A DNA stretch of 64,000 nucleotides, from assembly GCF_044324785.1 (NCBI RefSeq), contig NZ_CP172127.1; one strand, 5' to 3'. The position numbers were made by a program, and so were the translations under genes. Positions 5,624 to 44,506 of this stretch are shown in pieces (position 1 is the first letter of the stretch; every line of letters begins with the position of its first letter). This DNA comes from Escherichia coli. Lineage in GTDB: Bacteria; Pseudomonadota; Gammaproteobacteria; Enterobacterales; Enterobacteriaceae. The notes under the pieces were generated by a model. That model ran no database searches. It had not been told where the DNA came from and saw only the letters and a list, made by a program, of their open reading frames with translations.

Positions 5624-6372
5624 TGTCTATTGTGATGCAGCTACAGGATGTTGCGGAATCAACCCGCCTTGGGCCGCTTTCTGGCGAGGTTCGGGCTGGG
5701 GAGATCCTGCACCTGGTGGGGCCGAATGGCGCGGGTAAGAGTACCTTACTGGCGCGAATGGCCGGAATGACCAGCGGTAAGGGAAGCATTCAGTTCGCGG
5801 GGCAACCACTGGAAGCATGGTCCGCAACAAAACTCGCGCTGCATCGCGCCTATCTTTCACAACAGCAGACGCCGCCGTTTGCAATGCCGGTCTGGCACTA
5901 CCTGACACTGCATCAGCACGATAAAACGCGTACCGAACTACTGAATGATATCGCAGGGGCGCTGGCTCTTGATGACAAACTCGGACGTAGCACCAATCAA
6001 CTTTCCGGCGGTGAATGGCAACGCGTACGTCTTGCTGCGGTGGTGCTGCAAATCACACCACAAGCCAATCCCGCAGGCCAATTGCTGCTTCTTGATGAGC
6101 CGATGAACAGTCTTGATGTTGCGCAACAAAGTGCGTTAGACAAAATTCTGAGCGTGCTGTGTCAGCAAGGACTGGCGATTGTGATGAGCAGTCACGATCT
6201 CAACCACACATTGCGTCATGCGCATCGGGCGTGGTTGCTAAAAGGTGGAAAAATGCTGGCCAGTGGACGCAGAGAAGAGGTGCTCACGCCGCCAAATCTG
6301 GCGCAGGCCTATGGGATGAATTTTCGCCGTCTGGATATCGAAGGTCACCGAATGCTGATTTCGACCATCTGA
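5623..6372 (+). CDS. btuD: vitamin B12 ABC transporter ATP-binding protein
   Basis: 249-aa ORF with Walker [10 protein letters not shown] and ABC signature LSGGEWQRV; start ATG overlaps the btuE stop (TAATG). Confidence 0.93.
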
Positions 6373-6449
6373 TTTCATTAGTATCTTGAAAATCGGGTAA
6401 TTACGACGCTAAATTAATGCAAGAATAAAAAACAGAGGAACCGTACGGA

Positions 6450-6914
6450 ATGCGTTTCTGCCTTATTTTGATCACAGCACTGTTTCTGGCCGGGTGTAGC
6501 CACCATAAAGCACCGCCGCCAAATGCCAGACTTTCTGATTCGATTACCGTTATTGCCGGTTTGAACGACCAGCTACAAAGCTGGCATGGCACGCCGTATC
6601 GTTATGGTGGCATGACGCGGCGCGGTGTGGACTGTTCGGGATTTGTTGTTGTGACGATGCGCGATCGTTTCGATTTGCAGCTGCCCCGTGAAACCAAACA
6701 ACAAGCCTCTATCGGCACGCAAATTGATAAAGACGAGTTGCTGCCTGGTGACCTGGTCTTTTTCAAAACGGGCTCCGGACAAAATGGTTTGCATGTAGGT
6801 ATTTATGATACCAACAACCAATTTATCCACGCCTCTACCAGCAAGGGAGTGATGCGTTCCTCACTCGATAATGTCTATTGGCAGAAAAATTTCTGGCAGG
6901 CGAGACGAATCTAG
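6450..6914 (+). CDS. nlpC: NlpC/P60 family lipoprotein (peptidoglycan endopeptidase-like)
   Basis: 154-aa ORF with lipobox LAGC and NlpC/P60 Cys motif (DCSGFV). Confidence 0.9.
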   Translation: MRFCLILITALFLAGCSHHKAPPPNARLSDSITVIAGLNDQLQSWHGTPYRYGGMTRRGVDCSGFVVVTMRDRFDLQLPRETKQQASIGTQIDKDELLPGDLVFFKTGSGQNGLHVGIYDTNNQFIHASTSKGVMRSSLDNVYWQKNFWQARRI

Positions 6915-12068: not shown

Positions 12069-14447
12069 ATGTCCAACAATGGCTCGTCACCGCTGGTGCT
12101 TTGGTATAACCAACTCGGCATGAATGATGTAGACAGGGTTGGGGGCAAAAATGCCTCCCTGGGTGAAATGATTACTAACCTTTCCGGAATGGGTGTTTCC
12201 GTTCCGAATGGTTTTGCCACAACCGCCGACGCGTTTAACCAGTTTCTGGACCAAAGCGGCGTAAACCAGCGCATTTATGAACTGCTGGATAAAACGGATA
12301 TTGACGATGTTACCCAGCTTGCGAAAGCGGGCGCGCAAATCCGCCAGTGGATTATCGACACTCCCTTCCAGCCTGAGCTGGAAAACGCCATCCGCGAAGC
12401 CTATGCACAGCTTTCCGCCGATGACGAAAACGCCTCGTTTGCGGTGCGTTCCTCCGCTACTGCAGAAGATATGCCGGACGCTTCTTTTGCCGGTCAGCAG
12501 GAAACTTTCCTCAACGTTCAGGGTTTTGACGCCGTTCTCGTGGCTGTGAAACATGTATTTGCTTCTCTGTTTAACGATCGCGCCATCTCTTATCGTGTGC
12601 ACCAGGGTTACGATCACCGTGGCGTGGCGCTCTCCGCCGGTGTTCAGCGGATGGTGCGCTCCGACCTCGCATCTTCTGGCGTGATGTTCTCCATTGATAC
12701 CGAATCCGGCTTTGACCAGGTGGTGTTTATCACTTCCGCATGGGGCCTTGGTGAAATGGTCGTGCAGGGTGCGGTTAACCCGGATGAGTTTTACGTGCAC
12801 AAACCGACACTGGCGGCGAATCGCCCGGCTATCGTGCGCCGCACCATGGGGTCGAAAAAAATCCGCATGGTCTACGCGCCGACCCAGGAGCACGGCAAGC
12901 AGGTTAAAATCGAAGACGTACCGCAGGAACAGCGTGACATCTTCTCGCTGACCAACGAAGAAGTGCAGGAACTGGCAAAACAGGCCGTACAAATTGAGAA
13001 ACACTACGGTCGCCCGATGGATATTGAGTGGGCGAAAGATGGCCACACCGGTAAACTGTTCATTGTGCAGGCGCGTCCGGAAACCGTGCGCTCACGCGGT
13101 CAGGTCATGGAGCGTTATACGCTGCATTCACAGGGTAAGATTATCGCCGAAGGCCGTGCTATCGGTCATCGCATCGGTGCGGGTCCGGTGAAAGTCATCC
13201 ATGACATCAGCGAAATGAACCGCATCGAACCTGGAGACGTGCTGGTCACTGACATGACCGACCCGGACTGGGAACCGATCATGAAGAAAGCATCTGCCAT
13301 CGTCACCAACCGTGGCGGTCGTACCTGTCACGCGGCGATCATCGCTCGTGAACTGGGTATTCCGGCGGTAGTGGGCTGTGGTGATGCAACAGAACGGATG
13401 AAAGACGGTGAGAACGTCACTGTTTCTTGTGCCGAAGGTGATACCGGTTACGTCTATGCGGAGTTGCTGGAATTTAGCGTGAAAAGCTCCAGCGTAGAAA
13501 CGATGCCGGATCTGCCGTTGAAGGTGATGATGAACGTCGGTAACCCGGACCGTGCTTTCGACTTCGCCTGCCTGCCGAACGAAGGCGTGGGCCTTGCACG
13601 TCTGGAATTTATCATCAACCGTATGATTGGCGTCCACCCACGCGCACTGCTTGAGTTTGACGATCAGGAACCGCAGTTGCAAAACGAAATCCGCGAGATG
13701 ATGAAAGGTTTTGATTCTCCGCGTGAATTTTACGTTGGGCGTTTGACTGAAGGGATCGCGACGCTGGGTGCCGCGTTTTATCCGAAGCGCGTCATTGTCC
13801 GTCTCTCTGATTTTAAATCGAACGAATATGCCAACCTGGTCGGTGGTGAGCGTTACGAGCCAGATGAAGAGAACCCGATGCTCGGCTTCCGTGGCGCGGG
13901 CCGCTATGTTTCCGACAGCTTCCGCGACTGCTTCGCGCTGGAGTGTGAAGCAGTGAAACGTGTGCGCAACGACATGGGGCTGACCAACGTTGAGATCATG
14001 ATCCCGTTCGTGCGTACCGTAGATCAGGCGAAAGCGGTGGTTGACGAACTGGCGCGTCAGGGGCTGAAACGTGGTGAGAACGGGCTGAAAATCATCATGA
14101 TGTGTGAAATTCCGTCCAACGCCTTGCTGGCAGAGCAGTTCCTCGAATATTTCGACGGCTTCTCAATTGGCTCAAACGACATGACACAGCTGGCGCTCGG
14201 TCTGGACCGTGACTCCGGCGTGGTGTCTGAACTGTTCGATGAGCGCAACGATGCGGTGAAAGCACTGCTGTCGATGGCGATTCGTGCCGCGAAGAAACAG
14301 GGCAAATATGTCGGGATTTGCGGTCAGGGTCCGTCCGACCACGAAGACTTTGCCGCATGGTTGATGGAAGAGGGGATCGATAGCCTGTCTCTGAACCCGG
14401 ATACTGTGGTGCAAACGTGGTTAAGCCTGGCTGAACTGAAGAAATAA
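12069..14447 (+). CDS. ppsA: phosphoenolpyruvate synthase
   Basis: 792-aa ORF; PEP-utilising enzyme domains including the phosphohistidine region ([17 protein letters not shown]). Confidence 0.96.
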
Positions 14448-14454
14448 AATAAAT

Positions 14455-14479
14455 CCCCGGCGGCGTTTTGTCGCCGGGT
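14455..14479. terminator. bidirectional terminator between convergent ppsA and fadK (CCCGGCG-loop-CGCCGGG)
   Basis: GC stem flanked by A/T-rich runs on both sides, seen in sequence. Confidence 0.65.
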
Positions 14480-14503
14480 TTATGTGATCCCCGAAGATGA
14501 AAC

Positions 14504-16150
14504 TTATTCAATCTCTTCACAGACATCCTGAGTTAATCGCCGCATAATATCTTTCCTTAACAAAAACTTTTGTATTTTACCTGAGGCTGTGCGCGGTAGT
14601 TTTTCGATTACCACGATATGTTCAGGATATTTATATTTCGCGACCCGTTTACGGCTAAAAAATGCCACCACCTCTTCCAGCGATAATGAATGATGCGGCG
14701 CTTTCAGCACGACATAAGCGCATGAACGTTCACCTAAGCGTTCATCGGGCATTGCAACCACACAAGCATCGTGAATTTTAGGATGCTGTAATAAAATATC
14801 TTCCACTTCACGGCTGCTAATATTTTCGCCGCCGCGGACAATAATATCTTTCTTGCGCCCGGTTATTTTTATATAGCCAGCCTCATCCATGCGGCAGAGA
14901 TCGCCGCTGTAATACCAGCCTTCTTCATCCAGCGCACGGGCGGTTAATTCAGGTTCATCAAAATACCCCATAAACACATTGGGGCCACGCGAGGCTTCTT
15001 CACCTTCGTAACCTGGCGGTAAGGTCTTGCGTGCGTCATCGACCACTTTAATCTCAACTCCTGCGGCAGCGTAACCATCGGTGTGCATAAAGCGCGATAA
15101 AGGATCGTCGAGATTCACCACTGCGTGCGGCGAACTTTCTGTGGAACCATAAACACTTAATAATTTAATGCCGCGCTGCTGGCATTCACGCGCCACTTTT
15201 TTGGGGATTGTGGTCCCGCCGCAAAGAAAGAAGCGCAGCGCTGAAAGGTCTGCGGGTTGTTTCTCCAGTAAATTCAAAAGATCATAGACAAACGGCGTTG
15301 CGCCGAGCATACAGGTGCAACGCTGCTGCTCAAGCAGCGCGAGACACGCATCAGGAGTGAAAATATCTAACAACACGCTGCGAGCGCCAATTAAGAATGG
15401 TGCCGTTACGCCATGCAGAAAGCCCGTTGCATGACCAAGTGGCGCAGGCATCATAAAGACATCCTGCCAGGTCAGATTCAACCGCGCGCAATAAGCCCGC
15501 TCACTGGCGAGAATATTGTTATGCGTTAGCATCACGCCCTTTGGCAGACCCTCGGTTCCGGAGGTAAACAGCACCGCGGCTAATTCATCGCCGTGGACCG
15601 TTATCGCCGTGGTCAGAGGAGTATTGTCGGCGATAATCTGACTTAATGAGAGGGAAGAGGTGGCGGGAGCCAGTTTGTCCACGCCGACAATTTGTTGTAG
15701 TTGTGGAAGCTGATTTTGCAGCGGCAGGATTAAATCTACCGGACGCGTTTGTTTAAACAACGTCGGAGCAAAGAACATTTTTGCCTGACACTTATTGAGC
15801 ACCCATACCAGTTCTGCTTCCCGCCAGGAAGGCAACAGCGGTACGGAAACCGCACCGATTTTCAGGCAGGCAAGATAGATAACGGTAAATTCACACCAGC
15901 CAGGCAGTTGAAATGCGATGCGATCGCCTGATTCAATACCCTTCGCTAACATCCAGTTTGCCAGACAGCTCGCGGCGTGATCGAGCGCGCTATAGGTGTA
16001 CGATGCTCCATGATTATCGACCACGGCAATTTTGTCTGGCATCGCACGAGCGGTCTGCTGCCAGTAATCGGCCAGCGAAGCATCGCCCCATAGCCCTTGC
16101 TGACGATACGCCGCACGACGTTGTTCGTTAAACGTTAATGTCACTTTCAT
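14504..16150 (-). CDS. fadK: short-chain acyl-CoA synthetase (anaerobic)
   Basis: ORF track 14504..16204; internal ATG gives the 548-aa MKVTLTFNEQ protein; AMP-binding motifs (TSGTEGLPKG). Confidence 0.88.
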   Translation of the reverse strand: MKVTLTFNEQRRAAYRQQGLWGDASLADYWQQTARAMPDKIAVVDNHGASYTYSALDHAASCLANWMLAKGIESGDRIAFQLPGWCEFTVIYLACLKIGAVSVPLLPSWREAELVWVLNKCQAKMFFAPTLFKQTRPVDLILPLQNQLPQLQQIVGVDKLAPATSSLSLSQIIADNTPLTTAITVHGDELAAVLFTSGTEGLPKGVMLTHNNILASERAYCARLNLTWQDVFMMPAPLGHATGFLHGVTAPFLIGARSVLLDIFTPDACLALLEQQRCTCMLGATPFVYDLLNLLEKQPADLSALRFFLCGGTTIPKKVARECQQRGIKLLSVYGSTESSPHAVVNLDDPLSRFMHTDGYAAAGVEIKVVDDARKTLPPGYEGEEASRGPNVFMGYFDEPELTARALDEEGWYYSGDLCRMDEAGYIKITGRKKDIIVRGGENISSREVEDILLQHPKIHDACVVAMPDERLGERSCAYVVLKAPHHSLSLEEVVAFFSRKRVAKYKYPEHIVVIEKLPRTASGKIQKFLLRKDIMRRLTQDVCEEIE

Positions 16151-16206
16151 TTTGGACTCTCGAGACAGAACATCAGGCCCGAGATGCGGGCCTGTGGGAT
16201 GCATGA

Positions 16207-16500
16207 TTAGCCGTAGCGAAAATCAATACCGAAGGTGCCTGCGGGATATTGCCACTGTTCGAGAATAGTGTTGCCGCACAGCACCCGACAGGTGCCGCAC
16301 TCCAGACAACCGGCGGAATCGAAATGAATATTTCCTGCGTCATCCTGCTTATAAAGTCCGGCAGGGCAGGCTTTCATTAATTTACGGAATTCATTGATAT
16401 CGGGATTTGCCGCCAGAATGATATGCGGATGGCCCTCATCAACATGGAATTTATTGACGCCTAATTTGATGTCGACGTTAACCGTAGCGTTCTGGCTCAT
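16207..16500 (-). CDS. ydiT: ferredoxin-like protein (FixX-like)
   Basis: 97-aa ORF with a Cys cluster (CLECGTCRVLC). Confidence 0.88.
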   Translation of the reverse strand: MSQNATVNVDIKLGVNKFHVDEGHPHIILAANPDINEFRKLMKACPAGLYKQDDAGNIHFDSAGCLECGTCRVLCGNTILEQWQYPAGTFGIDFRYG

Positions 16501-17786
16501 AGCGCGGTTGCTCCCTTAATGCCATCTTTCAGCAAGTTGATCAGTCCAATTTTCTTCGCGTGTCCCATGATCATTTTGCGTACCGGTTGGTTAGGTTTGC
16601 CGTCAATGGTGAACATCTCGTTCATGATGTCGGCGACCATGCGCGGATACTGACTAAACAGGCGCGGATTTTCCATCAGCGCCGGGATCTTGCGGAAATG
16701 CTGCATATCGCGCATAACACAACTTTGTTCCAGCTCACGTTTGTATTGCGCCAGACTGCTGGTGGAGAAATCCGCGCGTTCTTTGGCGGCAATCACCGTT
16801 GTGGCGGCAGCCTGAGCTGATGCAATGGCTAAATCCATGCCGCGAACTGTAAAACCCAAATTCAGGCAGAAGCCTGCGGCGTCACCAACGATCATCACGC
16901 CATCGTTAACCAGCTGCGGCACCATCGCCAGACCGCCTTCCGGTACCATATGCGCGGAGTATTCAAGCAGTTTGCCGCCGCTAATCAGCGGGCGAATGGC
17001 GGGGTGTTGTTTAAAATCTTCCAGCATTTGCGGCACGCTTTTTTGCGCATGGGCGATATCACCCAATCCACAAACCAGCCCCAACGATATGGAATCCTTA
17101 TTGGTATAGAGGAATCCGCCACCCATCAGGCCGTCAGAAGGGGAACCGGCAAACAGCCAGGCGGCACCTTCCTCGCCCGTAATATTAAAGCGATCGTTGA
17201 TCTGTTCTGGTGTGAGGCCAATAACCTCTTTAACACCAACAGCGTAATGATGCGGATCGGAAGCGGGAACCATTCCCAGCGAGCGGCCAAGCATCGAGTT
17301 AACGCCATCAGCCAGAATCACCACATTCGCTTCGAGAATATCATCCCCAGCCTGGACGCCAGTGACCTTGTTTCCTTCACGAACCAGCGCATCGACGCGA
17401 ACGCCCGGGATAAACTGTGCGCCCGCCTGCTCGGCTTGTTCCATCAACCACGGGTCCAGACGATTACGCAATACGGTATAAGATGCGTGTTGCGGAACAT
17501 CTGGTTGCTCGCGGTGAAAATCGAGGGTAACGGCGCTCTCTTCGGTTAAGAAGGAGATTTTCTCGCGTGTGACCTTGCGTTCTACCGGCGCTGATGCTGC
17601 AAAGCCTGGAATGATTGCTTCAAGTGTGTGGGCATAAAGACGCCCGCCGGTCATGTTTTTACATCCGGCACTGTCGCCGCGTTCTATCACCAGGACATCC
17701 AGCCCGGCTTGCGCCATGACCAGTGCGGCAACGCTACCAGCAACGCCCGCACCGACCACAATGGCATCAAATTTGTCATCCGACAT
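16497..17786 (-). CDS. ydiS: FAD-dependent oxidoreductase, ETF-quinone oxidoreductase-like (FixC-like)
   Basis: 429-aa ORF with N-terminal dinucleotide-binding motif VVGAGVAGS; 4-bp overlap with ydiT. Confidence 0.88.
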   Translation of the reverse strand: MSDDKFDAIVVGAGVAGSVAALVMAQAGLDVLVIERGDSAGCKNMTGGRLYAHTLEAIIPGFAASAPVERKVTREKISFLTEESAVTLDFHREQPDVPQHASYTVLRNRLDPWLMEQAEQAGAQFIPGVRVDALVREGNKVTGVQAGDDILEANVVILADGVNSMLGRSLGMVPASDPHHYAVGVKEVIGLTPEQINDRFNITGEEGAAWLFAGSPSDGLMGGGFLYTNKDSISLGLVCGLGDIAHAQKSVPQMLEDFKQHPAIRPLISGGKLLEYSAHMVPEGGLAMVPQLVNDGVMIVGDAAGFCLNLGFTVRGMDLAIASAQAAATTVIAAKERADFSTSSLAQYKRELEQSCVMRDMQHFRKIPALMENPRLFSQYPRMVADIMNEMFTIDGKPNQPVRKMIMGHAKKIGLINLLKDGIKGATAL

Positions 17787-17841
17787 GCGTTATGCTCCCT
17801 TCCCGCTGCGTTTACAGCGGGAGATGTGGTTGAAAGGGGAA

Positions 17842-18780
17842 TTAGCGGCTCAACTGGCTAATCAGGGCAGGGACGACTTTGTAGATATCGCCCACCAGAC
17901 CGTAGTCGGCATAGTTGAAGATTGGCGCATTTTTATCTTTATTGATGGCGACAATCACTTTTGCGCCGTTGCCGCCAACCATATGCTGGATCTGCCCGGA
18001 GATTCCCAGCGTCAGGTAGAGATCGGATTTCAGCAACACGCCGGAGACACCGATATAACGTTCACGCTCCATCCAGTTCTCGCCTTCGGCAATTGGACGT
18101 GAACAGCCGACTTCAGCATTCAGAACCGCCGCCAGTTCGTGGACCATTTTCAGGTCATCCTGCGCTGCCAGACCACGACCGACGCCAACCACACGTTTTG
18201 CTTTGCTCAGGTCCACGCTGCTTGCCGCTTTCGCACGGCGTTCGCGACAGAGAATTTCATGACGCGGGGCAACATAAGGTACCGTTTCTGTCGGGCACTG
18301 ATGAGAGGTATCACTGGTGCACGGTTCCTGAACACCGGGTGCAAGGGTAATGATCGCCAGCGGGCTGTTGATCTTTTCCTGTGCGAACGCTAACCCGCCA
18401 TACATCCGGTGTTCGGCGCAAATGTGACCATCGACAATATCCACCGCCGTGGCATCGTTCACCAGCGCCGCATTCAGTTGCACACTTAACCGTGCTGCCA
18501 GAGCTTTACCACGTTTCGTCGCGGCCAACAGCAACATAGCGGGGTGTTTATCTTTCAGCAGGGCAGCAATGCTTTCGGCGTAATTTTCAGTACGTTGCAG
18601 CGCATCATTTTGCTCAAGAACATAAATACATTTTGGACCATAAGGCATAACTGCCTGCGCCTGGTCGGTATTTTGTACAATGGCATACACCTGTTGACCC
18701 CATTGCTGCGCGCCGCCAAACAGTTCAGCATAACGTTCAGGATTATCGCTAAAGACCCAGACGCTGTTTAATTGACTCAT
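17842..18780 (-). CDS. ydiR: electron transfer flavoprotein alpha subunit (FixB-like)
   Basis: 312-aa ORF; ETF alpha family. Confidence 0.88.
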   Translation of the reverse strand: MSQLNSVWVFSDNPERYAELFGGAQQWGQQVYAIVQNTDQAQAVMPYGPKCIYVLEQNDALQRTENYAESIAALLKDKHPAMLLLAATKRGKALAARLSVQLNAALVNDATAVDIVDGHICAEHRMYGGLAFAQEKINSPLAIITLAPGVQEPCTSDTSHQCPTETVPYVAPRHEILCRERRAKAASSVDLSKAKRVVGVGRGLAAQDDLKMVHELAAVLNAEVGCSRPIAEGENWMERERYIGVSGVLLKSDLYLTLGISGQIQHMVGGNGAKVIVAINKDKNAPIFNYADYGLVGDIYKVVPALISQLSR

Positions 18781-18799
18781 CGTTTCTTCTCCGTAGGCT

Positions 18800-19564
18800 T
18801 CAGTTCAGGGCTTTCTTCAGATGTTCCACCAGCTCGGCAATGGCCTCCGGCGAATCGTTATCGAGAATGATGTGCTTACGTTCTGTTTGCGGCGGTACGC
18901 GAATGCCGGTCAGTTCAGCAAGTGGTGCGCTCTGGCTCCAGCCAATATCACTTGCCTGCCACTGATTTACCGGTTTTTTACCCGCGCCGAGAATGGCTTT
19001 CATCGAAGGAATGCGTGGCATGTTAATATCGGAGGTGACGCAGAGCACGGCTGGAACAGAGAGCTCAATAACTTCAACATCATCTTCAAGCGTGCGTTCA
19101 ATCACCAGTGTATTGCCCTGACGCTGAATAGCACTCACTGCATTAATCACCGGAAGTTGCAGAATTTCTCCGACCAGCAAGCCAACCTGCTGGGCATAAA
19201 GGTCGCCGGAACCTTCACCAAAGATCAGTAAATCGAAGCCGATCTTTTCAACTGCTGCCGCCAGCGCCTTTGCGGTATCGAGAGGCAGTGCATGTTCAAG
19301 TTGCGCATCCTGCACCAAATACAGGCTATGCGGCCCGCGGGATAGCACGTCTTTGCGCACTTTCGAGTTCTGCAACAATGAGCCACCAATAGTCAGCGCG
19401 GCTATCTCATCGTCATCTGTTGCAAGCTGGCTTGCAGCTTCAATGGCATTGAGATCGAACTGGCTGATTTTGGCGTCGGCATTGTCGAAATTCAGGGTAT
19501 ATTCTGGAGTGACAACAATGTCCTGTTCTTCAGGCACCAGCTTAAAGCAGGTTATTATTTTCAT
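18800..19564 (-). CDS. ydiQ: electron transfer flavoprotein beta subunit (FixA-like)
   Basis: ORF track 18800..19663; internal ATG gives the 254-aa MKIITCFKLVPEEQDIVV protein. Confidence 0.88.
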   Translation of the reverse strand: MKIITCFKLVPEEQDIVVTPEYTLNFDNADAKISQFDLNAIEAASQLATDDDEIAALTIGGSLLQNSKVRKDVLSRGPHSLYLVQDAQLEHALPLDTAKALAAAVEKIGFDLLIFGEGSGDLYAQQVGLLVGEILQLPVINAVSAIQRQGNTLVIERTLEDDVEVIELSVPAVLCVTSDINMPRIPSMKAILGAGKKPVNQWQASDIGWSQSAPLAELTGIRVPPQTERKHIILDNDSPEAIAELVEHLKKALN

Positions 19565-19879
19565 GATTTCTCCTGTGAGTCGCATACGGAACCATCTCCG
19601 ATGGAAGGTAAAAATGGCCTGAAAATAGTGTGCGATAGCGGTGCGGGGTTTTCGACGGAGCAAGCTGTTTTCCTTGCCAACAATCTTGCAAAAAAAATGC
19701 GATCGCTAAAACAAAAGTGCAATTTGCGGCAATATAGTTATTCCATGACCGTACAATCTTGCATTCAGTGTAAATAATCTTGTTTAGCTCTCGCTAAACG
19801 CGGTTGTATAACCGCAATACACGCCGTATTTTATCCGGCATATATTGTTTTTGCTTGCTCATGGAATAGGGAGGTTGTC

Positions 19880-20791
19880 ATGTATCAACGCTGTTTTGAT
19901 AATGCCAGTGAAACGCTGTTTGTCGCCGGTAAAACGCCACGGCTTTCACGTTTTGCATTTAGCGATGATCCAAAATGGGAGTCCGGACATCACGTTCATG
20001 ACAATGAAACCGAGTTGATTTACGTCAAGAAAGGGGTAGCAAGGTTTACCATCGATTCTTCGTTATATGTCGCGCACGCCGATGACATTGTGGTGATAGA
20101 ACGTGGCAGGCTGCATGCGGTGGCCTCTGACGTTAACGATCCAGCAACGACGTGTACCTGTGCGCTGTACGGCTTTCAGTTTCAGGGGACTGAGGAAAAT
20201 CAGCTACTGCAACCGCATTCTTGCCCGGTAATTGCCGCAGGGCAGGGAAAAGAAGTCATTAAAACCTTATTTAATGAGCTAAGTGTGATTTTGCCGCAAA
20301 GTAAAAATAGCCAAACATCTTCGTTATGGGACGCATTTGCCTATACGTTAGCAATTCTTTACTATGAAAACTTTAAAAATGCTTATCGTTCGGAGCAGGG
20401 GTATATTAAAAAAGATGTTCTGATAAAAGATATTCTTTTCTATCTGAATAATAATTATCGCGAAAAAATCACTTTAGAGCAGTTATCGAAAAAATTTCGT
20501 GCCAGCGTCAGTTATATTTGCCATGAATTTACCAAAGAGTATCGTATTTCCCCTATTAACTATGTTATTCAACGGCGTATGACGGAAGCGAAATGGTCAC
20601 TCACCAATACTGAATTATCACAGGCAGAGATCTCCTGGCGTGTGGGTTATGAAAATGTCGATCACTTTGCCAAACTGTTTTTGCGCCATGTCGGCTGTTC
20701 GCCCAGCGATTACCGCAGGCAATTTAAAAACTGTTTTGCGGAACAAGAAATCTTATCTGAATTTCCTCAACCGGTAAGTCTTGCCGGATAA
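19880..20791 (+). CDS. ydiP: AraC/XylS-family transcriptional regulator
   Basis: 303-aa ORF with C-terminal AraC-type HTH; divergent from ydiQ. Confidence 0.85.
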   Translation: MYQRCFDNASETLFVAGKTPRLSRFAFSDDPKWESGHHVHDNETELIYVKKGVARFTIDSSLYVAHADDIVVIERGRLHAVASDVNDPATTCTCALYGFQFQGTEENQLLQPHSCPVIAAGQGKEVIKTLFNELSVILPQSKNSQTSSLWDAFAYTLAILYYENFKNAYRSEQGYIKKDVLIKDILFYLNNNYREKITLEQLSKKFRASVSYICHEFTKEYRISPINYVIQRRMTEAKWSLTNTELSQAEISWRVGYENVDHFAKLFLRHVGCSPSDYRRQFKNCFAEQEILSEFPQPVSLAG

Positions 20792-20833
20792 ATCTGGCGG
20801 CGCAGTTTGTTAAGAAGCTGCGCCGCCTGCAGA

Positions 20834-21985
20834 TTATTTGTTCTGATAATCTTTCAGGATCTGCCGACCCGCTACGTAAATCATAATTTCGTCTGTACCG
20901 CCGCCGATACGTTCACAACGGACATCACGCCAGAAGCGAGAGACGCGCGCCTCATCGGTATAGCCCAGACCGCCCATGATTTGAATCGCATCATCAATGA
21001 CTTCCATTGCAGTACGTGCGCAGTACAGTTTTGCCAGCGCCGCGCTGGTGCGCAGTGACTGATGCTGATCGGCTTGCCATGCCACTTTCAACACCATGTT
21101 GCGCATGTTGTCGATCTTAATCGCCATCAGCGCCAGTTTTTCCTGGATCATCTGGTTATGACCAATGGGCTTACCAAAAGCGATACGTTGGTTGGCATAG
21201 CGGGCGGCATCTTCGAATGCGCATTCGGCAAAGCCGGTGCTGCGCGCGGCGTTGATCAGGCGCTCCATCTCAAAGTTGTACATCACATTGAGGAAACCCA
21301 TTCCTTCTTCCCCCACCATGTCGCTCTCTTCAACTTCTACGTTGTCGAGATAGACTTCGCAGGTGCTGAGCATATGCCAGCCGATTTTATGCAGCGGGTT
21401 AATCTTAATGCCGGGCTTACTGGAGTCGACCCACCACAGGGTGAAGGCTTTTTTGGGATCTTTCGGTTCTGGATCGCGCGCCAGCACCAGCATATACGGG
21501 TACTCTTTCGCGCCGGTAATAAAGGTTTTCTGGCCGTTGATGTAAACCTTGCCATTTTTACGCGTGTAAGTGGTAGTAGCACTGTTATTGTCTGAGCCTG
21601 CGCCTGGTTCCGTCAACGCCAGGGCATAGGCGGGATCACCCGTTTCCAGGGTGCTCTCTGCCGTTTTACGTAGCTGCTCAGCAGAACCGAAACGGCGCAT
21701 GCTGTGAATACATTGACCGTTGGTAATCAAAAATGCCGGAGCACCGCATTTTGACACTTCCATCAGCGCCAGCATTTGGGTGACGTAATCCGCAGGGATA
21801 CCACCAAATTCTTCCGGCACGCCAAGCATGGAAATACCGTTATCCGCCAGTGCCCGCATAAATTCACGCGGGTATGTCCCGTTTTGATCGCAGGTGCGGA
21901 AATACTCTTCCGGAAAGTTAGTCGTAATCAGTTCGCGAATACTGGCCAGCAGCAGTTCTTGTTCTTCAGTTAAAGAAAAATCCAT
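20834..21985 (-). CDS. ydiO: acyl-CoA dehydrogenase family protein
   Basis: ORF track 20834..22039; internal ATG gives the 383-aa MDFSLTEEQELL protein; ACAD family. Confidence 0.88.
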   Translation of the reverse strand: MDFSLTEEQELLLASIRELITTNFPEEYFRTCDQNGTYPREFMRALADNGISMLGVPEEFGGIPADYVTQMLALMEVSKCGAPAFLITNGQCIHSMRRFGSAEQLRKTAESTLETGDPAYALALTEPGAGSDNNSATTTYTRKNGKVYINGQKTFITGAKEYPYMLVLARDPEPKDPKKAFTLWWVDSSKPGIKINPLHKIGWHMLSTCEVYLDNVEVEESDMVGEEGMGFLNVMYNFEMERLINAARSTGFAECAFEDAARYANQRIAFGKPIGHNQMIQEKLALMAIKIDNMRNMVLKVAWQADQHQSLRTSAALAKLYCARTAMEVIDDAIQIMGGLGYTDEARVSRFWRDVRCERIGGGTDEIMIYVAGRQILKDYQNK

Positions 21986-21998
21986 CGTGATACTCCTG

Positions 21999-23594
21999 TT
22001 AATGAGCCGCTTCAGGCAGGACAAAACCCATCGCCGCATCGATAAATAATCTTTCGTCCATCAGTTTGAGTTCTGGCGAAATCACTGGGGTGAAATCCAT
22101 TTTGTCGAGAATATCTTTTTGTAAATCGACGCCAGGGGCGATTTCGATTAAATGCAGGCCGTCTTCTTTTAGCGTGAATACGGCGCGCTCAGTGATATAA
22201 CGAACATCCAGTCCTCGCTCGAGAGCGATTTTTCCGCTGAAAGTAATTTCCGGTAGTTCCCGAATAAATTTCTTCACCCGTCCTTCCTGGACGATATTTA
22301 ATTTGCCGTCGGCAATTTCTGTTTTTAAACTGCCCGCGGTTAATGTGCCGCAGAAAATGATTTTCTTCGAAGTGGCACTGATATCAATAAATCCACCGGT
22401 GCCCATGATTTTACCATTGAATTTATGCACGCCGACGTTACCGTGCTGGTCGACTTCAGCAAAACTCAAATAACAAACATCCAGACCGCCACCGTGATAA
22501 AAATCAAACTGGGACGTCATATCCAGAATGGCGCGGGTATTCACGTTCGCGCCAAAGGCGATCCCCTGTGAAGTAATTCCGCCAATCGGACCTGTTTCTA
22601 CCGTCAGAATAAAGTCATCAGCACAACCTTCTTCCCGGGCGACCAGGCCAATGCCGTCAGCAATACCGACGCCGACATTCCCCACCGCGCCTTTACGCAT
22701 TTCGAATAATGCGCGCCGCGCAACTAATTTACGTTGGTTTAGGGGCAGGCTAAGTTTGGTACTGTCATCAAGGGTGAAGTCACCAGAAATAAAGCGGTTA
22801 ACCGGTGCACCGCCATACAGTTGGGTTTGATCCGGATCGACCACCACAATATCCACCAGATAACCCGGAATACGGACAGATTTAGGATGCAGCGTGGCTT
22901 TCTTAACCATTTTCTGCACCTGCATCATCACAATACCGCCGTTATTGTGCACCGCCTGGGCAATAACCAATGCGTCGAGATACATCACCTCATCTTCAAA
23001 AGTGGCGTAGCCTTCGCTGTCGCAGGTGGTAGCGCGAATGAAGGCGATATCTGGCGCAATCGCTTTGTAATAGAGATATTCTTTGTTATCAAACTCGACC
23101 AGTTTAATCAGGTCTTCTTTAGTGACTTCATTCAGTTTGCCGCCTTGCTGGCGTGGATCGACAAATGTCCCGATGCCAATATCACTAATAATACCAGGCT
23201 GGTGGGCTGCGGCGGCGCGTAAGGTTTGTGTAAGTACACCTTGTGGATAGTTATAAGCAATAATTTTATTTTGTTCTGCGAGATCAGAAATACGCGGCGA
23301 TTGTCCCCAGTGACCGCATAATGCCCATTTCACCAGACCTTCTTGCGCCAGCGGACTAATACCGCGATCGGCGCGATCGCCAAGCCCTGTTGGACTTATA
23401 ATCGATAAATTACGTGGCGTTTGAGTCTGTTTATATTTATCAGCAAGAGCAGTAATTAACGTGGTGGCTTCCAGAATACCGCCGCCAGCGCCTAACACAC
23501 AAAGTGTTGCTTCGTCGGGAATATAATTCACCGCTTCCTGTGCCGACAGGACCGGCACTCGTCCATTAATACGAGGTGGTTTTACAGGTTTCAT
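21999..23594 (-). CDS. ydiF: family I CoA-transferase (acetate/short-chain acyl-CoA transferase, fused alpha-beta)
   Basis: 531-aa ORF; fused two-domain CoA transferase. Confidence 0.88.
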   Translation of the reverse strand: MKPVKPPRINGRVPVLSAQEAVNYIPDEATLCVLGAGGGILEATTLITALADKYKQTQTPRNLSIISPTGLGDRADRGISPLAQEGLVKWALCGHWGQSPRISDLAEQNKIIAYNYPQGVLTQTLRAAAAHQPGIISDIGIGTFVDPRQQGGKLNEVTKEDLIKLVEFDNKEYLYYKAIAPDIAFIRATTCDSEGYATFEDEVMYLDALVIAQAVHNNGGIVMMQVQKMVKKATLHPKSVRIPGYLVDIVVVDPDQTQLYGGAPVNRFISGDFTLDDSTKLSLPLNQRKLVARRALFEMRKGAVGNVGVGIADGIGLVAREEGCADDFILTVETGPIGGITSQGIAFGANVNTRAILDMTSQFDFYHGGGLDVCYLSFAEVDQHGNVGVHKFNGKIMGTGGFIDISATSKKIIFCGTLTAGSLKTEIADGKLNIVQEGRVKKFIRELPEITFSGKIALERGLDVRYITERAVFTLKEDGLHLIEIAPGVDLQKDILDKMDFTPVISPELKLMDERLFIDAAMGFVLPEAAH

Positions 23595-23739
23595 TGTTAA
23601 TTCCTGATTCAGATGTGATTTTCCCTACGCCAGATGGAGAATTAGCGCACAGAGACTCACGAAATATTTTTATTAAATACGGTTAAATATATTTTTTTTA
23701 GTTCGGCGGGGGAGGATATTCCCGCCGAAATATTATTGC

Positions 23740-24498
23740 TTATGCCTGGTGTAAAATAGTTAATACCGTGCGCAAATCATTTACCGAGATTTGCCCTGGT
23801 GCAGAGGCTTTTTTTACCGCACCAAAAGTTGCCGCCGAGCCAAATACTTCACCAGCCAGACGAGAAATTACGCCAGTTTTTGCCATCGACATCGTGATGA
23901 TTGGACGATCGGCATACTGCTCCTGCATCTCCAGGGTCGCGGCAAGCAACGTCAGCACATCGCTGGTACTTTGCGGCATCAGCGCAATCTTAGGAATATC
24001 GGCATCGAAGGACTGCATTTTGCGCAGACGGGCAATGATTTCTTCGGCTTCCGGCGTTTTATGGAAGTCATGGTTGGACATGACAACTTTCACATCATGC
24101 GCGTGGGCGTAGGCGACGGTTTCTTTAACCTGATCATCGCCGGTAAATAACTCCAGATCGATCATATCAACCAGGCCACTATCGATGGCTGCACGATTGA
24201 GTGCAATATAAGCCTCGGTGGAAATCGCCTGCTCGCCGCCTTCTTTGGCACTGCGGAAGGTAAACAGCAGCGGTTTTTCTGGCATGGTTTCACGGAGAAT
24301 TTTTGCTGCCGCCATGACAGACTCCACATTGGAGAGGTCGGCATAGTGGTCCACACGCCATTCCAGAATATCAAAGTCCGCTTCACGATAGGCGAGAGCT
24401 TCGGATTTCACGCTGGCGATATCTTTCGCCATCAGCGAGACGATGATTTTAGGTGCGCCCGTACCAATGACGAGATCTTTTACAGTTACGGTTTTCAT
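23740..24498 (-). CDS. aroD: 3-dehydroquinate dehydratase, type I
   Basis: 252-aa ORF; type I DHQase sequence recognised. Confidence 0.95.
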
Positions 24499-24528: not shown

Positions 24529-25395
24529 TCAGGCACCGAACCCCATGACCTGTTTAACATATTCCAGAGGGAAATCTTTGCCAGTCCATAACGTGAACTG
24601 TTCAGCCCCTTGCCACAACAACATGCCGTATCCATCAATCGTTTTGCAACCAGCTTGTTGCGCCTGCTGCAATAACTTCGTCATATGCGGGTTATACACG
24701 CATTCAGTGACCAGAAGTCCCGGATGTAACAGACTGATATCATTAACCAATGATTCATTCTCAAGGGGTTTCATGCCCACTTTTGTGCCATTGGTTAAAA
24801 TGTCGGCGGAAGCCAGAGCTTCAGCAAAGGCTTGCTGATCGGCGAGATCGGTAACCGTGACGACACAATCGGTGTTTTTGTTAACCCGTTGCGCGAAGGC
24901 GAGGGCTTTATCGAAGAATTCATCCCGACGGTTAAAGAGTTTAATTTCTTTTAAACCTTCAATTGCCCCCTGCGCGCCAATCGCCGTTGAGGCACCGCCG
25001 GCACCCAGCAGCACCATCGTTTTGCCTTTGATATCAAAACCGCTCTCTTTAATGGCGCGAATATGGCCCGTGCCGTCGGTGTTATAGCCACGCAGATAGC
25101 CATCATCATTAACGATGGTGTTGATGGCCCCCACCAGTTTGGCAGCTGGCGTTAATTCATCAACATATTCACATGCCAGTTGTTTGTTCGGCATCGACAC
25201 ACCAGTTCCGCGCATTTTGAGGGCTTTTAATCCTTCAATTGCTCCGGGAAAGCTATCGTTATCCACTTCAAAGGCCATATAGGTAAATGGCAATCCCGCT
25301 TTTTCTAAGGCTTTATTCTGCATTTCGGGCGATAAACTGTGGCGGATGGGATAGGCCATAAGCCCAATCAATTCGTATTTTGCGGTAACATCCAT
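24529..25395 (-). CDS. ydiB: quinate/shikimate dehydrogenase
   Basis: 288-aa ORF with Rossmann motif [10 protein letters not shown]; AroE paralogue. Confidence 0.92.
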
Positions 25396-25406
25396 AATTA
25401 ACTCCT

Positions 25407-26672
25407 TTAACCTCTATGCTTAATTGTGTTTAACCGGGTGCTAAATTTACGCTCGCCAAACCGCACATCATTTTCAGGAATAATGAAAACGCGGTAATAG
25501 CGGATAAAGACAATAATTGCGGTAATCAGGGCCAGCAGCGCGAAAGTAAAATCGAGAGCAATGATATATTGCAGACCGATGTTCGACAGATAACCGGTAA
25601 TCAGCGGAATAACAAAATTAGCCAGTCCACCCATCATCATATATATACTGGTGACTTTGGCTTTGCTTTTTGGGAAAAACTCTGACATGACCGAAACGCC
25701 GAGCTGTAAAATGCCGCCAGCTGCTGAGAAACCGATAACAAAGGCTCCGGCATTACACACCAATGGAGAAGGGTACAGGTAGATAATGGCAGCTGTTATT
25801 GTTGCCAGTGCAGAGTTAAATACATTAGCCCAGATGGGCCGGACCATTTTTTTCAGCAGTGCGGCAAAAATAAAGACACAGACCAGCGAACCCATACTGT
25901 AATAAGAGATGGTTTTTAATGCCTCAGCTTCTGACATACCAGCAAAAGCCATCGCATATTTGGGCATCCACACCACAATCACATAAAAGGTCGAGAATGC
26001 GGCTACACCGAACAGTACCGATGAAACACCTTCCAGCCAGACTAACGGTTTGCTGTTCATTTGCGGTAATTCATTAGCTACGCTGGCGTCCACCAACTGG
26101 CTGGGGAATTTGCTTTTCAACAGCATCAGCGTGATCAGTACAAACAGAATACCCGGAATAATCAGCCCATAGCCGTACCAGATGTTATTGAGCAACATAT
26201 AGCTCACCAGCATTGGGTAGAACATTTGTCCGAATGACACCATCGCTTTAACCAGTATGACCGCCGAACCAGAGGCTTTCGGAAAGCATTCCATGAGCGC
26301 GGGGTAGCCACCCGTATCCAGCGCTGAGTTAGCGATACCTACGCACACTGCCAGACAGTAGGCGAGAGTTAAATTCGGGCAAGCGGGAATACCAAAGAAG
26401 AATAGCAGATACATTATTACTGCCATTAATATCACCGCCCGACGACCAAACTTATCGGAGATCACACCGAAGAATAAAATACTGATCAATCGCCCCAAAC
26501 CGATACCGGAAATTAAATAGGCAATGCCCGCGTTGTCAGTGGAAAACTTTTCTGCCAGAGATGACATATTTTGGGCAAGCGTAATAACACTAATGCCGTG
26601 CAGGAAATAGCTGAAGTAAATACAAAGAACAGCCAGGATAAATGGCGTGCTGAAAGCCTTATTTTGAGACAT
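25407..26672 (-). CDS. ydiN: MFS transporter
   Basis: ORF track 25407..26678; start moved 2 codons to MSQNKAF, about 421 aa; 12-TMS-like hydrophobic profile. Confidence 0.8.
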
Positions 26673-26898
26673 TTTCACAGCTCCTTGCTGAAAGATAATT
26701 TCGTTACCGTACGTATTGTTCTCCGACGGTTTACATAATTACTATACTGAAGATGATTTTCTCTGGGTACATGGCATAAAGTTTATGTTTCCAGGAATAT
26801 TGCATGTCATAGTTTGTTTTTGATCGCGATTTTCCTTAGTTAGCGCAGAAAGAGTTATTTATCCGTAAGATCTTGCATGACCTGAAAAGAATATTGCA

Positions 26899-28569: not shown

Positions 28570-28706
28570 CGTGTAATGGCTGCATGAAATAAACAATAAA
28601 ATATAAATAACATTATCAGCCTGCTGACGGCTTGAAGAGAGTCACAGTATCTTGTGCAACATTATTGGAAAGCGTGAGGGGCGAGGTAGCGAAGCGGAAA
28701 AATGTT

Positions 28707-28812
28707 AAAAAAAAGCCCATCGTGGGAGATGGGCAAAGACTACACACAGCAATTCGTTGTTTCACTCAGGGGATTTCCATGCTTATAAATCAATATGTTG
28801 ATTTATAACCGT
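28707..28812 (-). ncRNA. rprA: RprA small regulatory RNA (Hfq-dependent, activates rpoS translation)
   Basis: minus-strand sequence ACGGTTATAAATCAACATATTGATTTATAAGCATGGAAATCCCCTGAGTGAAACAACGAATTGCTGTGTGTAGTCTTTGCCCATCTCCCACGATGGGCTTTTTTT recognised as RprA, including the terminal hairpin plus U-run; lies between ydiL and ydiK. Confidence 0.85.
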
Positions 28813-44492: not shown

Positions 44493-44506
44493 TTGATAAC
44501 GATCAA
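44493..44506 (+). promoter_or_regulatory. FNR-box upstream of ydhY (TTGATAACGATCAA)
   Basis: perfect TTGAT-N4-ATCAA consensus about 200 bp upstream of the ydhY ATG; the ydhYVWXUT operon is reported to be FNR-activated. Confidence 0.7.

Follow-up and report, generated by a model that had tools for sequence, protein, structure and literature searches.

Which acid does the ydi acyl-CoA redox locus of Escherichia coli act on, and in which direction do electrons pass through it? The question is raised by positions 14504-23594 of the window (the whole stretch of 64,000 nucleotides analysed), a segment which is the named E. coli locus ydiF-ydiO / ydiP / ydiQRST-fadK and whose ends are exactly the fadK stop and the ydiF start. 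YdiO and YdiQRST are products of 'y-ome' genes, the function of which is still called unknown in a 2022 review that describes experimental evidence on YdiQR as lacking (PMC9329746). The roles published for the locus are anaerobic beta-oxidation, butyrate use and reversed beta-oxidation, and both redox directions have already been proposed. An earlier note on this DNA had read it as an acyl-CoA redox module linked to an electron-transfer flavoprotein (ETF); that interpretation, like the locus itself, is already published ground, and the gene-level description is real but not new. The new part is the evidence from synteny and from an operator motif, which suggests a directly testable lead on the substrate of YdiO/YdiQRST. 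The genes concerned are the following.

14504-16150, minus strand: fadK (ydiD), short/medium-chain acyl-CoA ligase, last gene of ydiQRST-fadK (annotation and NF004758)
16207-16500, minus strand: ydiT, FixX/EtfX-type ferredoxin-like protein with one 4Fe-4S-type Cys motif (NF011993; PDB 7koe_D)
16497-17786, minus strand: ydiS, FixC/EtfC-type ETF:quinone oxidoreductase (ETF-QO) flavoprotein (NF007450; PDB 7koe_C)
17842-18780, minus strand: ydiR, ETF large (alpha) subunit (NF008884; residue alignments)
18800-19564, minus strand: ydiQ, ETF small (beta) subunit (NF008998; motif alignments)
19880-20791, plus strand: ydiP, cupin/AraC_binding plus HTH_18 regulator (annotation and Pfam)
20834-21985, minus strand: ydiO, CaiA-clade acyl-CoA dehydrogenase / enoyl-CoA reductase (NF008997; alignment)
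21999-23594, minus strand: ydiF, family I CoA-transferase with fused alpha and beta halves (PDB 2AHU/2AHV/2AHW)
23740-24498, minus strand: aroD, type I 3-dehydroquinate dehydratase, outside the span of the earlier note (annotation)
24529-25395, minus strand: ydiB, NAD(P)-dependent quinate/shikimate dehydrogenase (annotation)
25407-26672, minus strand: ydiN, major facilitator superfamily (MFS) transporter, first gene of ydiN-ydiB-aroD (annotation)

Synteny was compared across 45 loci with YdiO orthologs; the orthologs for which the linkage described below is constant share at least 72% identity. The locus proved to be part of a larger syntenic block, ydiN-ydiB-aroD-ydiF-ydiO-<ydiP-ydiQRST-fadK, which is found in Escherichia, Citrobacter, Kosakonia, Intestinirhabdus, Yersinia, Serratia, Dickeya, Brenneria, Prodigiosinella and Symbiopectobacterium, and which is flanked by ppsA only in the loci of Escherichia, Citrobacter and Intestinirhabdus. 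Four other gene orders accompany orthologs of the enzyme, three of which (C to E) were found using the Sutterella enzyme as query. In the lines below, SDH denotes a shikimate dehydrogenase and DHQase a dehydroquinase.

Arrangement A, Enterobacterales: ydiN-ydiB-aroD-ydiF-ydiO-<ydiP-ydiQRST-fadK
Arrangement B, two species of Sutterella (Betaproteobacteria): ydiTSRQ adjoining ydiN-ydiB-aroD-ydiF-ydiO, with neither ydiP nor fadK
Arrangement C (L056): MFS-YdiF-YdiO-ETFbeta-ETFalpha-SDH-DHQase-FixC-FixX, with a divergent cupin-AraC gene
Arrangement D (L059/L060): MFS-YdiF-YdiO-ETFbeta-ETFalpha-DHQase-FixC-FixX-ligase
Arrangement E (L061/L062): AraC-MFS-MFS-YdiF-YdiO-ETFbeta-ETFalpha-SDH-DHQase

The Sutterella YdiO proteins share 80-84% identity with that of E. 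coli, and their genes lie between unrelated flanks in DNA with a GC content of 0.59-0.62, against 0.44-0.54 in E. coli. Arrangements C to E are tight single-strand operons of low-GC hosts (42-44% GC), the last of them placed in Burkholderiales by a flanking guaA fragment; their dehydrogenases are 75-77% identical to E. coli YdiB and their dehydroquinases 65-69% identical to AroD. As host GC content ranges from 42% to 60%, the sharing of the block is not a matter of recent transfer.

A type I dehydroquinase (DHquinase_I) accompanies the YdiO clade in all five gene orders and a YdiB-type dehydrogenase in four of the five. Equally constant are a CoA-transferase gene (PF01144 CoA_trans) directly upstream of the YdiO ortholog (5/5), a YdiN-type MFS gene ahead of the YdiF ortholog and the ETF genes, while a fadK-type ligase (2/5) and an AraC-type neighbour (3/5) are accessory. 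In three arrangements the shikimate genes directly follow the ETF-alpha gene, and in two of these they are placed between the ETF and FixC genes within one operon. A transporter, a quinate/shikimate dehydrogenase and a dehydroquinase are in this way linked across differing gene orders, as in a hydroaromatic cluster. The outgroups (Desulfovibrio desulfuricans and others, at most 63% identical to the Sutterella YdiO query) have family III CoA-transferases and no shikimate genes, the linkage being found in none of six outgroup contexts; their enzymes are 63-74% identical to E. coli YdiO, compared to 77-84% for the shikimate-linked clade. Linkage of YdiM/YdiN homologs with shikimate genes has been described previously (PMC10588857). 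These linked neighbours suggest that the native substrate is derived from quinate or shikimate and not from fatty acids.

The ydiQRST half and the ydiN-ydiB-aroD half also appear to share one operator motif, and the following elements bear on their transcription.

19756-19782, plus strand: O1, tandem ATCTTG-N15-ATCTTG in a 21-bp register, in the ydiP/ydiQ divergent region; candidate YdiP operator
26870-26896, plus strand: O2, ATCTTGCATGACCTGAAAAGAATATTG, the tandem motif with 1 mismatch, in the ydiM/ydiN intergenic region
23702-23729, strand not assigned: GC-rich hairpin directly past the aroD stop, in the 145-bp aroD-ydiF spacer

The ATG codons of ydiQ and ydiP lie 218 bp and 98 bp downstream of O1, respectively; O2, 224 bp upstream of the ydiN ATG, has the same orientation and register relative to ydiN as O1 has to ydiQ. 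Allowing at most one mismatch, these two are the only tandem motifs in the window, where 0.38 would be expected; a single extra copy, ACAATCTTGCA, is present in the ydiP/ydiQ region at 19680-19690. The exact tandem recurs in the ydiP/ydiQ region of 28 related loci besides the present one (L001), is found upstream of ydiN instead in a metagenome-assembled genome (L036), and in arrangement C is placed between the AraC gene and the combined operon. Both Sutterella species carry a 1-mismatch tandem between ydiQRST and ydiN-...-ydiO, and a tandem of the same orientation precedes ydiN in 10 of 11 Enterobacterales lineages (at most two mismatches, at a background of about 0.2 per kb). YdiP presumably binds this candidate motif. 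The ydiN site escapes a search for the 11-mer ACAATCTTGCA and is recovered with the tandem 6-N15-6 pattern.

A single operon running from ydiN to ydiO in E. coli and Sutterella was considered and rejected, as the hairpin past aroD is conserved in most genera and takes the form of a canonical terminator in S. wadsworthensis. On the transcribed (minus) strand the E. coli hairpin is followed by an A-run, not by a T-run. It follows that, in arrangements A and B, the halves form adjacent transcription units.

The published view of the locus holds that FadK or YdiF activates an acid, that YdiO oxidises the acyl-CoA and that the ETF and YdiST pass the electrons to quinone and further to nitrate or tetrathionate, FadJ/FadI being responsible for the remaining steps and the linkage to aroD-ydiB-ydiN being incidental. 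FadK obtains 1089 bits with NF004758 (cut-off 736), followed by the cyclohexanecarboxylate-CoA ligase model TIGR03208 (422 bits, below that model's cut-off); it is a characterised short/medium-chain acyl-CoA ligase with highest activity on C6-C8, and a fadD fadK double mutant makes no use of fatty acids (PMC9329746). A role for YdiQR in anaerobic growth on fatty acids was proposed from the adjacency to fadK (Campbell 2003 and Morgan-Kiss 2004, as cited in PMC9329746), Gulevich 2016 is cited for the same view of the ydi genes (in PMC10318755), and the Salmonella 'ydiQRSTD' genes, or ydiD, are credited with anaerobic butyrate utilisation (Bronner 2018, as cited in PMC9530198, PMC13170390 and PMC6249985). 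In addition, the route from an acyl-CoA dehydrogenase via ETF to ETF-QO is that of standard beta-oxidation, and YdiS resembles ETF-QO. However, the review which calls the function of YdiQR unknown also notes a failure to reproduce the anaerobic induction of fadK and the absence of FadR or CRP control (PMC9329746). The evidence for this view centres on fadK, an accessory gene absent from three of the five arrangements, including that of Sutterella, and it leaves unexplained both the presence of dehydroquinase and quinate/shikimate dehydrogenase genes inside an ETF operon and the shared operator upstream of ydiN. Moreover, the closest characterised paralog, CaiA/FixABCX, works reductively. A primary role in fatty-acid oxidation is regarded as less likely, though still a serious alternative.

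The relationship to the carnitine system is indeed close. YdiO scores 787 bits with NF008997 and 452 bits with the CaiA model, and for each of the proteins the runner-up family is the Cai/Fix paralog; identities to the K-12 proteins are 48% (YdiO-CaiA), 55% (YdiQ-FixA), 45% (YdiR-FixB), 61% (YdiS-FixC) and 63% (YdiT-FixX), and 29% for CaiC. The Glu of the canonical Y-E-G-T motif is missing from YdiO (in 44/44 orthologs) and from CaiA, which read GGGT and SGGS there, and a helix-G Glu is conserved in both (NFEMER in YdiO, EFDHER in CaiA), where two reference structures of the medium-chain acyl-CoA dehydrogenase type have Gly. The helix-G position is that of the catalytic base in isovaleryl- and long-chain acyl-CoA dehydrogenases, and goes with bulky or branched substrates. 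The parallel with the Fix/Cai carnitine systems drawn by the earlier note is thereby borne out part by part (45-63% identity), down to the relocated catalytic Glu and to a DLYAQQVG motif in the small ETF subunit: a CaiA-clade acyl-CoA dehydrogenase is joined to a FixABCX-type ETF/quinone module. Both systems also have the logic of a ligase combined with a CoA-transferase and an anaerobic context, caiTABCDE/fixABCX serving the anaerobic conversion of carnitine to gamma-butyrobetaine in E. coli. They differ in that YdiF, which is the protein of PDB 2AHU/2AHV/2AHW (E=0), belongs to family I (PF01144) and CaiB to family III, in that the regulator is of AraC type in ydi and CaiF in cai, and in that the CaiD hydratase and the CaiT antiporter are confined to the cai side: annotation and family search revealed no ECH-type (CaiD-like) or BCCT-type (CaiT-like) gene in the ydi locus. 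In their place, the ydi genes are accompanied by those for an MFS transporter, a dehydroquinase and a dehydrogenase of quinate/shikimate.

The next relatives of YdiO (42-54% identity) are encoded in clusters of an AMP-ligase, a CoA-transferase, an acyl-CoA dehydrogenase and an ETF, with or without FixC/FixX, together with an MFS gene; carnitine and caffeate reduction have this same CoA-recycling reductase layout. It recalls the Acetobacterium woodii CarABCDE system (6FAH), in which a CoA-transferase, a ligase, a reductase of acyl-CoA dehydrogenase type (CarC, 3.3e-45 against YdiO) and an ETF act on an alpha,beta-unsaturated ring acid, to which the substrate proposed here may be likened. CarDE differs from YdiQR in being bifurcating and ferredoxin-coupled, in its DGDTAQ motif, in having no FixC/FixX-type link to quinone and in the N-terminal extension of CarE, which is absent in YdiR, the alignment beginning at CarE residue 69. 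A Cai/Car-like reductase for some other dietary enoate, such as chlorogenate-derived hydroxycinnamates or short 2-enoates, with the quinate genes as co-regulated companions, would share this equivalence of layout with caffeate and carnitine reduction. It would also be consistent with the best solved match of YdiQ, which is the ETF subunit of caffeyl-CoA reductase, and with the only near full-length family match of YdiP, the aromatic-acid-responsive regulator HpaA, although this match has a weak score. Such a substrate would account for the co-regulation but not for the retention of a dehydroquinase inside the operon in every lineage, and nothing points to it specifically; this alternative is regarded as improbable.

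At the quinone end, YdiS scores 975 bits with NF007450 and 640 bits with the FixC model, and matches both 7koe_C (1.3e-70) and ETF-QO (2gmh, 4.7e-25). YdiT obtains 144 bits with the FixX model NF011993, just under its cut-off of 166, and matches 7koe_D (EtfX) at 2.3e-14. Only five Cys are present in YdiT, C45 (CPAG) and C65, C68, C71 and C75, which form one Cx2Cx2Cx3C plus CP motif; Thermotoga EtfX has Cys beyond these. A FixC-type flavoprotein is thus paired with a FixX-type Fe-S protein, from which coupling to quinone is predicted, and the simplest wiring would be linear, from YdiO via YdiQR and YdiT/YdiS to quinone. Enoyl-/acyl-CoA couples have potentials of about -10 mV and menaquinone of about -74 mV. 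With these potentials the chain could run either way, depending on the quinone pool.

Whether the ETF could instead bifurcate electrons, as the earlier note had considered possible, was judged by comparing motifs with the criteria of PMC8958531 and PMC6764259, in place of a published ETF group assignment. In bifurcating ETFs the small subunit carries D-G-D-T-A-Q, with T in 100% and D/E at the third position in 95% of 216 sequences, and canonical group 1 ETFs carry the AMP-site motif D-(D)-D-x-N-Q, with N in 98% of 449 sequences (PMC8958531); the second FAD is bound by two Thr, T94 and T97 of RpaEtfS (PMC6764259), and an Arg at the domain interface is common to bifurcating and canonical ETFs (PMC8958531, PMC6764259). 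YdiR (NF008884, 692 bits) shows the general features of the ETF family, with its motif for the electron-transferring FAD (ET-FAD), DLYLTLGISGQIQHMVG, and its interface Arg (EHRMYGG) both intact when aligned to 5ol2_A, 7qh2_A, 6fah_A and 7koe_B. In YdiQ (NF008998, 496 bits), a clade-specific motif, GEGSGDLYAQQVG, replaces both the bifurcating DGDTAQVG and the canonical DxDxNQTG. The region reads G-E-G-S-G-D-L-Y-A-Q-Q-V-G, so that the invariant Thr is Ala and the Asp/Glu is Tyr, and neither the bifurcating nor the canonical AMP-site signature is present. Position 94 is Pro, as in canonical ETFs, and position 97 is Thr, as in bifurcating ones. DLYAQQ is strictly conserved in all YdiQ orthologs, in K-12 FixA, in Sutterella, in the Desulfovibrio-type relatives and in the low-GC lineages. 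The YdiQ/FixA motif accordingly defines a putative third kind of site, outside both published signatures. The ydi chain shares with the canonical ETF/ETF-QO chain (1EFV, 1EFP, 2GMH) the route from an acyl-CoA dehydrogenase through ETF to a quinone oxidoreductase, the ET-FAD site and the Pro at the Thr94 position, and differs in lacking DxDxNQ, in having a quinone reductase split into FixC and FixX, and in the relocated catalytic base of YdiO. In the third ETF-beta paralog of E. coli, YgcR (K-12 ygcR, 5777-6556), the nucleotide-site motif reads SSEGQNGQT, unlike YdiQ/FixA and unlike the bifurcating and canonical forms.

A bifurcating enoyl-CoA reductase (of the type of Bcd-EtfAB or CarCDE, or FixABCX-like) would take electrons from NADH to a second FAD on YdiQR and split them between YdiO/quinone and YdiT/ferredoxin. 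It could draw on the fact that the solved ETFs nearest to YdiQ are bifurcating ones (CarD as best match at 1.3e-23, with LctB and C. difficile EtfB also among the nearest), on the subunit-by-subunit homology of YdiQRST to the bifurcating Thermotoga maritima EtfABCX (7KOE; YdiQ/7koe_A 2e-11 and YdiR/7koe_B 1.3e-33, besides the matches of YdiS and YdiT given above), on the retained Thr97 and interface Arg and on a ferredoxin-coupled scheme proposed in the metabolic-engineering literature. Nearness to these structures is, however, a reflection of overall similarity and not of the nucleotide site, and EtfABCX and the FixABCX of nitrogen fixation, which bifurcate NADH electrons to quinone and ferredoxin/flavodoxin, have no acyl-CoA dehydrogenase partner; their small-subunit signature is absent from YdiQ, and the extra Cys of EtfX from the single cluster motif of YdiT. 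With enoyl-CoA and quinone both high-potential acceptors, bifurcation would also be redundant. With Ala in place of the invariant Thr and Tyr in place of the Asp in YdiQ, bifurcation is not supported; it is regarded as highly improbable, and the YdiQRST chain is predicted to be linear and not NADH/ferredoxin-bifurcating. Among the FAD-binding residues of YdiQ and YdiR, which the earlier note had put forward as a check, the signature of the bifurcating FAD is missing from YdiQ, and the ET-FAD site, the interface Arg and Thr97 are kept. The retained Thr97 and the conservation of the replacement motif itself also weigh against a strictly linear chain, as the motif test leaves room for a non-standard second flavin site.

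The explanation which fits these findings best, and which we would give somewhat better than an even chance, is that of a linear, quinone-linked Cai/Fix-like module that forms a larger unit with ydiN-ydiB-aroD and probably handles a shikimate-derived CoA thioester. We infer the most likely native substrate to be a quinate/shikimate-derived cyclohexene-carboxyl-CoA, because the conserved unit includes ydiN, ydiB and aroD and because of the apparently common operator motif. A more specific proposal is that the module is one regulon with ydiN-ydiB-aroD, presumably that of YdiP, and not primarily devoted to fatty acids, in which YdiO reduces (or forms) the ring C1=C2 bond in a menaquinone-coupled 'shikimate/quinate respiration'; this could equally well prove right or wrong. 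Shikimate and 3-dehydroshikimate are cyclohex-1-ene-1-carboxylates, that is, alpha,beta-unsaturated acids. Quinate would be taken up through YdiN and converted by YdiB and AroD to 3-dehydroshikimate and shikimate. YdiF would load the acid with CoA and, once the product is formed, transfer its CoA to a further molecule of substrate, a cycle which may be primed by FadK or acetyl-CoA, FadK in addition activating C4-C8 fatty acids. YdiO, as a CaiA-type flavoenzyme, would interconvert acyl-CoA and 2-enoyl-CoA, here by reducing the ring C1=C2 of the thioester, and would exchange single electrons with the ETF YdiQR. This in turn would be tied to the membrane quinone pool via the FixC-like YdiS and the single-cluster FixX-like YdiT in a linear and reversible manner. 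In the reductive route, electrons would pass from menaquinol via YdiST, YdiQR and YdiO to the enoyl-CoA, an electron sink like carnitine or caffeate reduction. By analogy with these systems there is a slight lean towards reduction, as opposed to oxidation of a saturated hydroaromatic acyl-CoA.

In the conversion of shikimate to cyclohexanecarboxyl-CoA by Streptomyces collinus and Alicyclobacillus, and in the reduction of quinate and shikimate by lactobacilli and gut flora, the ring double bond of shikimate-derived acids is reduced, partly as the CoA thioester. To our knowledge, none of the enzymes known from these conversions is linked to an ETF or to quinone, unlike the proposed ydi chain. 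Two observations are counted as weak support: a strain overproducing shikimate shows a 28-32-fold increase in the expression of ydiQ, ydiR and ydiT (PMC4015609), and the formation of cyclohexanecarboxylate from shikimate is ascribed to gut microflora, which reduces it (Brewster 1978, as cited in PMC7558350).

Several points weigh against the quinate/shikimate explanation. The aroD product of E. coli is the biosynthetic dehydroquinase, and the position of its gene could be historical. One of the low-GC operon types is placed in Burkholderiales, the order of Sutterella, so that perhaps only two independent host orders are represented. The hairpin or terminator past aroD divides this gene from ydiF, and the motif scan detected no operator copy ahead of ydiF. 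The published genetics, in the secondary citations given above, connect the anaerobic use of fatty acids or butyrate with fadK and 'ydiQRSTD', and no paper in the accessible literature connects ydiF or ydiO with quinate or shikimate.

If the quinate/shikimate explanation is true, abundant plant acids of the diet would join the respiratory electron acceptors or donors of enteric bacteria, with a 'shikimate/quinate respiration' in Enterobacterales and Sutterella, and the reduction of shikimate and quinate to cyclohexane carboxylates by gut microbes, observed decades ago, would gain a genetic basis. The dual quinate/shikimate specificity of YdiB would also be explained, and the role of 'ydiQRSTD' in Salmonella gut biology and in the engineering of reversed beta-oxidation would need to be re-read.

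As to the locus itself, open reading frames (ORFs) and annotation agree on fadK, ydiT, ydiS, ydiR, ydiQ, ydiO, ydiF and ydiP, the gene content stated in the earlier note, and the annotation of an identical public record lists all eight in the same order. Likewise upheld by homology to FixC/EtfC and FixX/EtfX are the designations of YdiS as ETF:quinone oxidoreductase-like and of YdiT as a ferredoxin. For FadK, YdiS, YdiR, YdiQ and YdiO the score exceeds the cut-off of the protein's own equivalog or subfamily model in NCBIfam, and YdiP is assigned at the level of its cupin/AraC_binding and HTH_18 domains only. The longest ORFs overshoot the annotated starts of fadK (566 vs 548 aa), ydiQ (287 vs 254) and ydiO (401 vs 383), of which the shorter, annotated starts are favoured since the family models align from there. 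Two descriptions needed amendment: the AraC regulator ydiP is divergent from ydiQ, as described, but convergent with ydiO, and the pair written 'ydiO-ydiF' is present but transcribed in the order ydiF, ydiO. The label 'self-contained' had to be dropped, as the ORF list and annotation show no hydratase, 3-hydroxyacyl-CoA dehydrogenase or thiolase gene between ppsA and ydiM and the conserved unit extends to aroD-ydiB-ydiN.

At the nucleotide level (megablast), the 10-kb stretch matches E. coli strain N3 with 100% identity and 5424 other records with 95-99%, the next-best after N3 at 98.7%. Of 5426 complete E. coli genomes, 5425 contain it, with at least 80% of it covered in 5348 and about 78 falling short of this coverage; the query (14000-24000) matched 8689 places in 5429 records, with a median of 2 places per genome. 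Strain E69 of E. coli (CP089930.1) has ppsA about 1.3 kb past a match to ydiF, with only a 71-residue ydiO remnant between the two, which looks like a natural deletion running from inside ydiO through fadK. The block of Enterobacter sp. EA-1 (CP025776.1) is degraded, with matches to YdiO (70%), AroD (51%) and FadK (55%) and no full-length matches to YdiF, YdiP, YdiS or YdiT; this looks like pseudogenisation in a reduced genome. A contig labelled Martelella alba, an alphaproteobacterium (NZ_SZPQ01000057.1), carries the full enterobacterial-type block (YdiO 91%), and its label looks like a misassignment or contamination. Two candidates for intermediate lineages, P0203 and P0122, were rejected as frameshift-ridden E. 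coli-like assemblies, and P0297 was set aside as an orphan acyl-CoA dehydrogenase that is uninformative for the comparison of contexts.

YdiO shows 91-97% amino acid identity in Enterobacterales genera outside Escherichia (from Citrobacter to Yersinia and Dickeya), compared to 67-76% for YdiR and 62-84% for YdiP in the same genomes; one possibility is that its unusual conservation stems from many protein contacts. An orphan YdiO-like gene on a metagenome contig (L057, 10001-11143), whose product is 74% identical to that of E. coli, lacks ETF and CoA-transferase genes as neighbours. About 1.7 kb upstream of it, beyond an aldo-keto reductase gene, a multihaem cytochrome c / 4Fe-4S / NrfD-type membrane complex is encoded.

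A scan for FNR boxes (TTGAT-N4-ATCAA, at most two mismatches) gave 48 matches against 36 +/- 6 expected, none of them convincing in the ydiP/ydiQ region, and thus lends no sequence support to FNR control of the locus; generic promoter and terminator scans remained at chance level. The sole zero-mismatch match in the window is a perfect FNR-type palindrome at 44493-44506, TTGATAACGATCAA, and a one-mismatch FNR-like site, TTGATTTACGTCAA, is placed inside ydiP at 20015-20028, 135 bp into the coding region. In the gap from the ydiT stop to the annotated start of fadK (16150-16206), the minus strand holds a GC-rich hairpin with an 8-bp stem and no T-run (16174-16194). It may serve in processing or attenuation within the operon; the longest fadK ORF, with its start at 16204, would engulf it. 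Rfam detected a single RNA, outside the locus and ordinary for E. coli, as it lies between ydiK and ydiL as in annotated genomes.

28705-28812, minus strand: RprA small RNA (Rfam RF00034, 118.5 bits)

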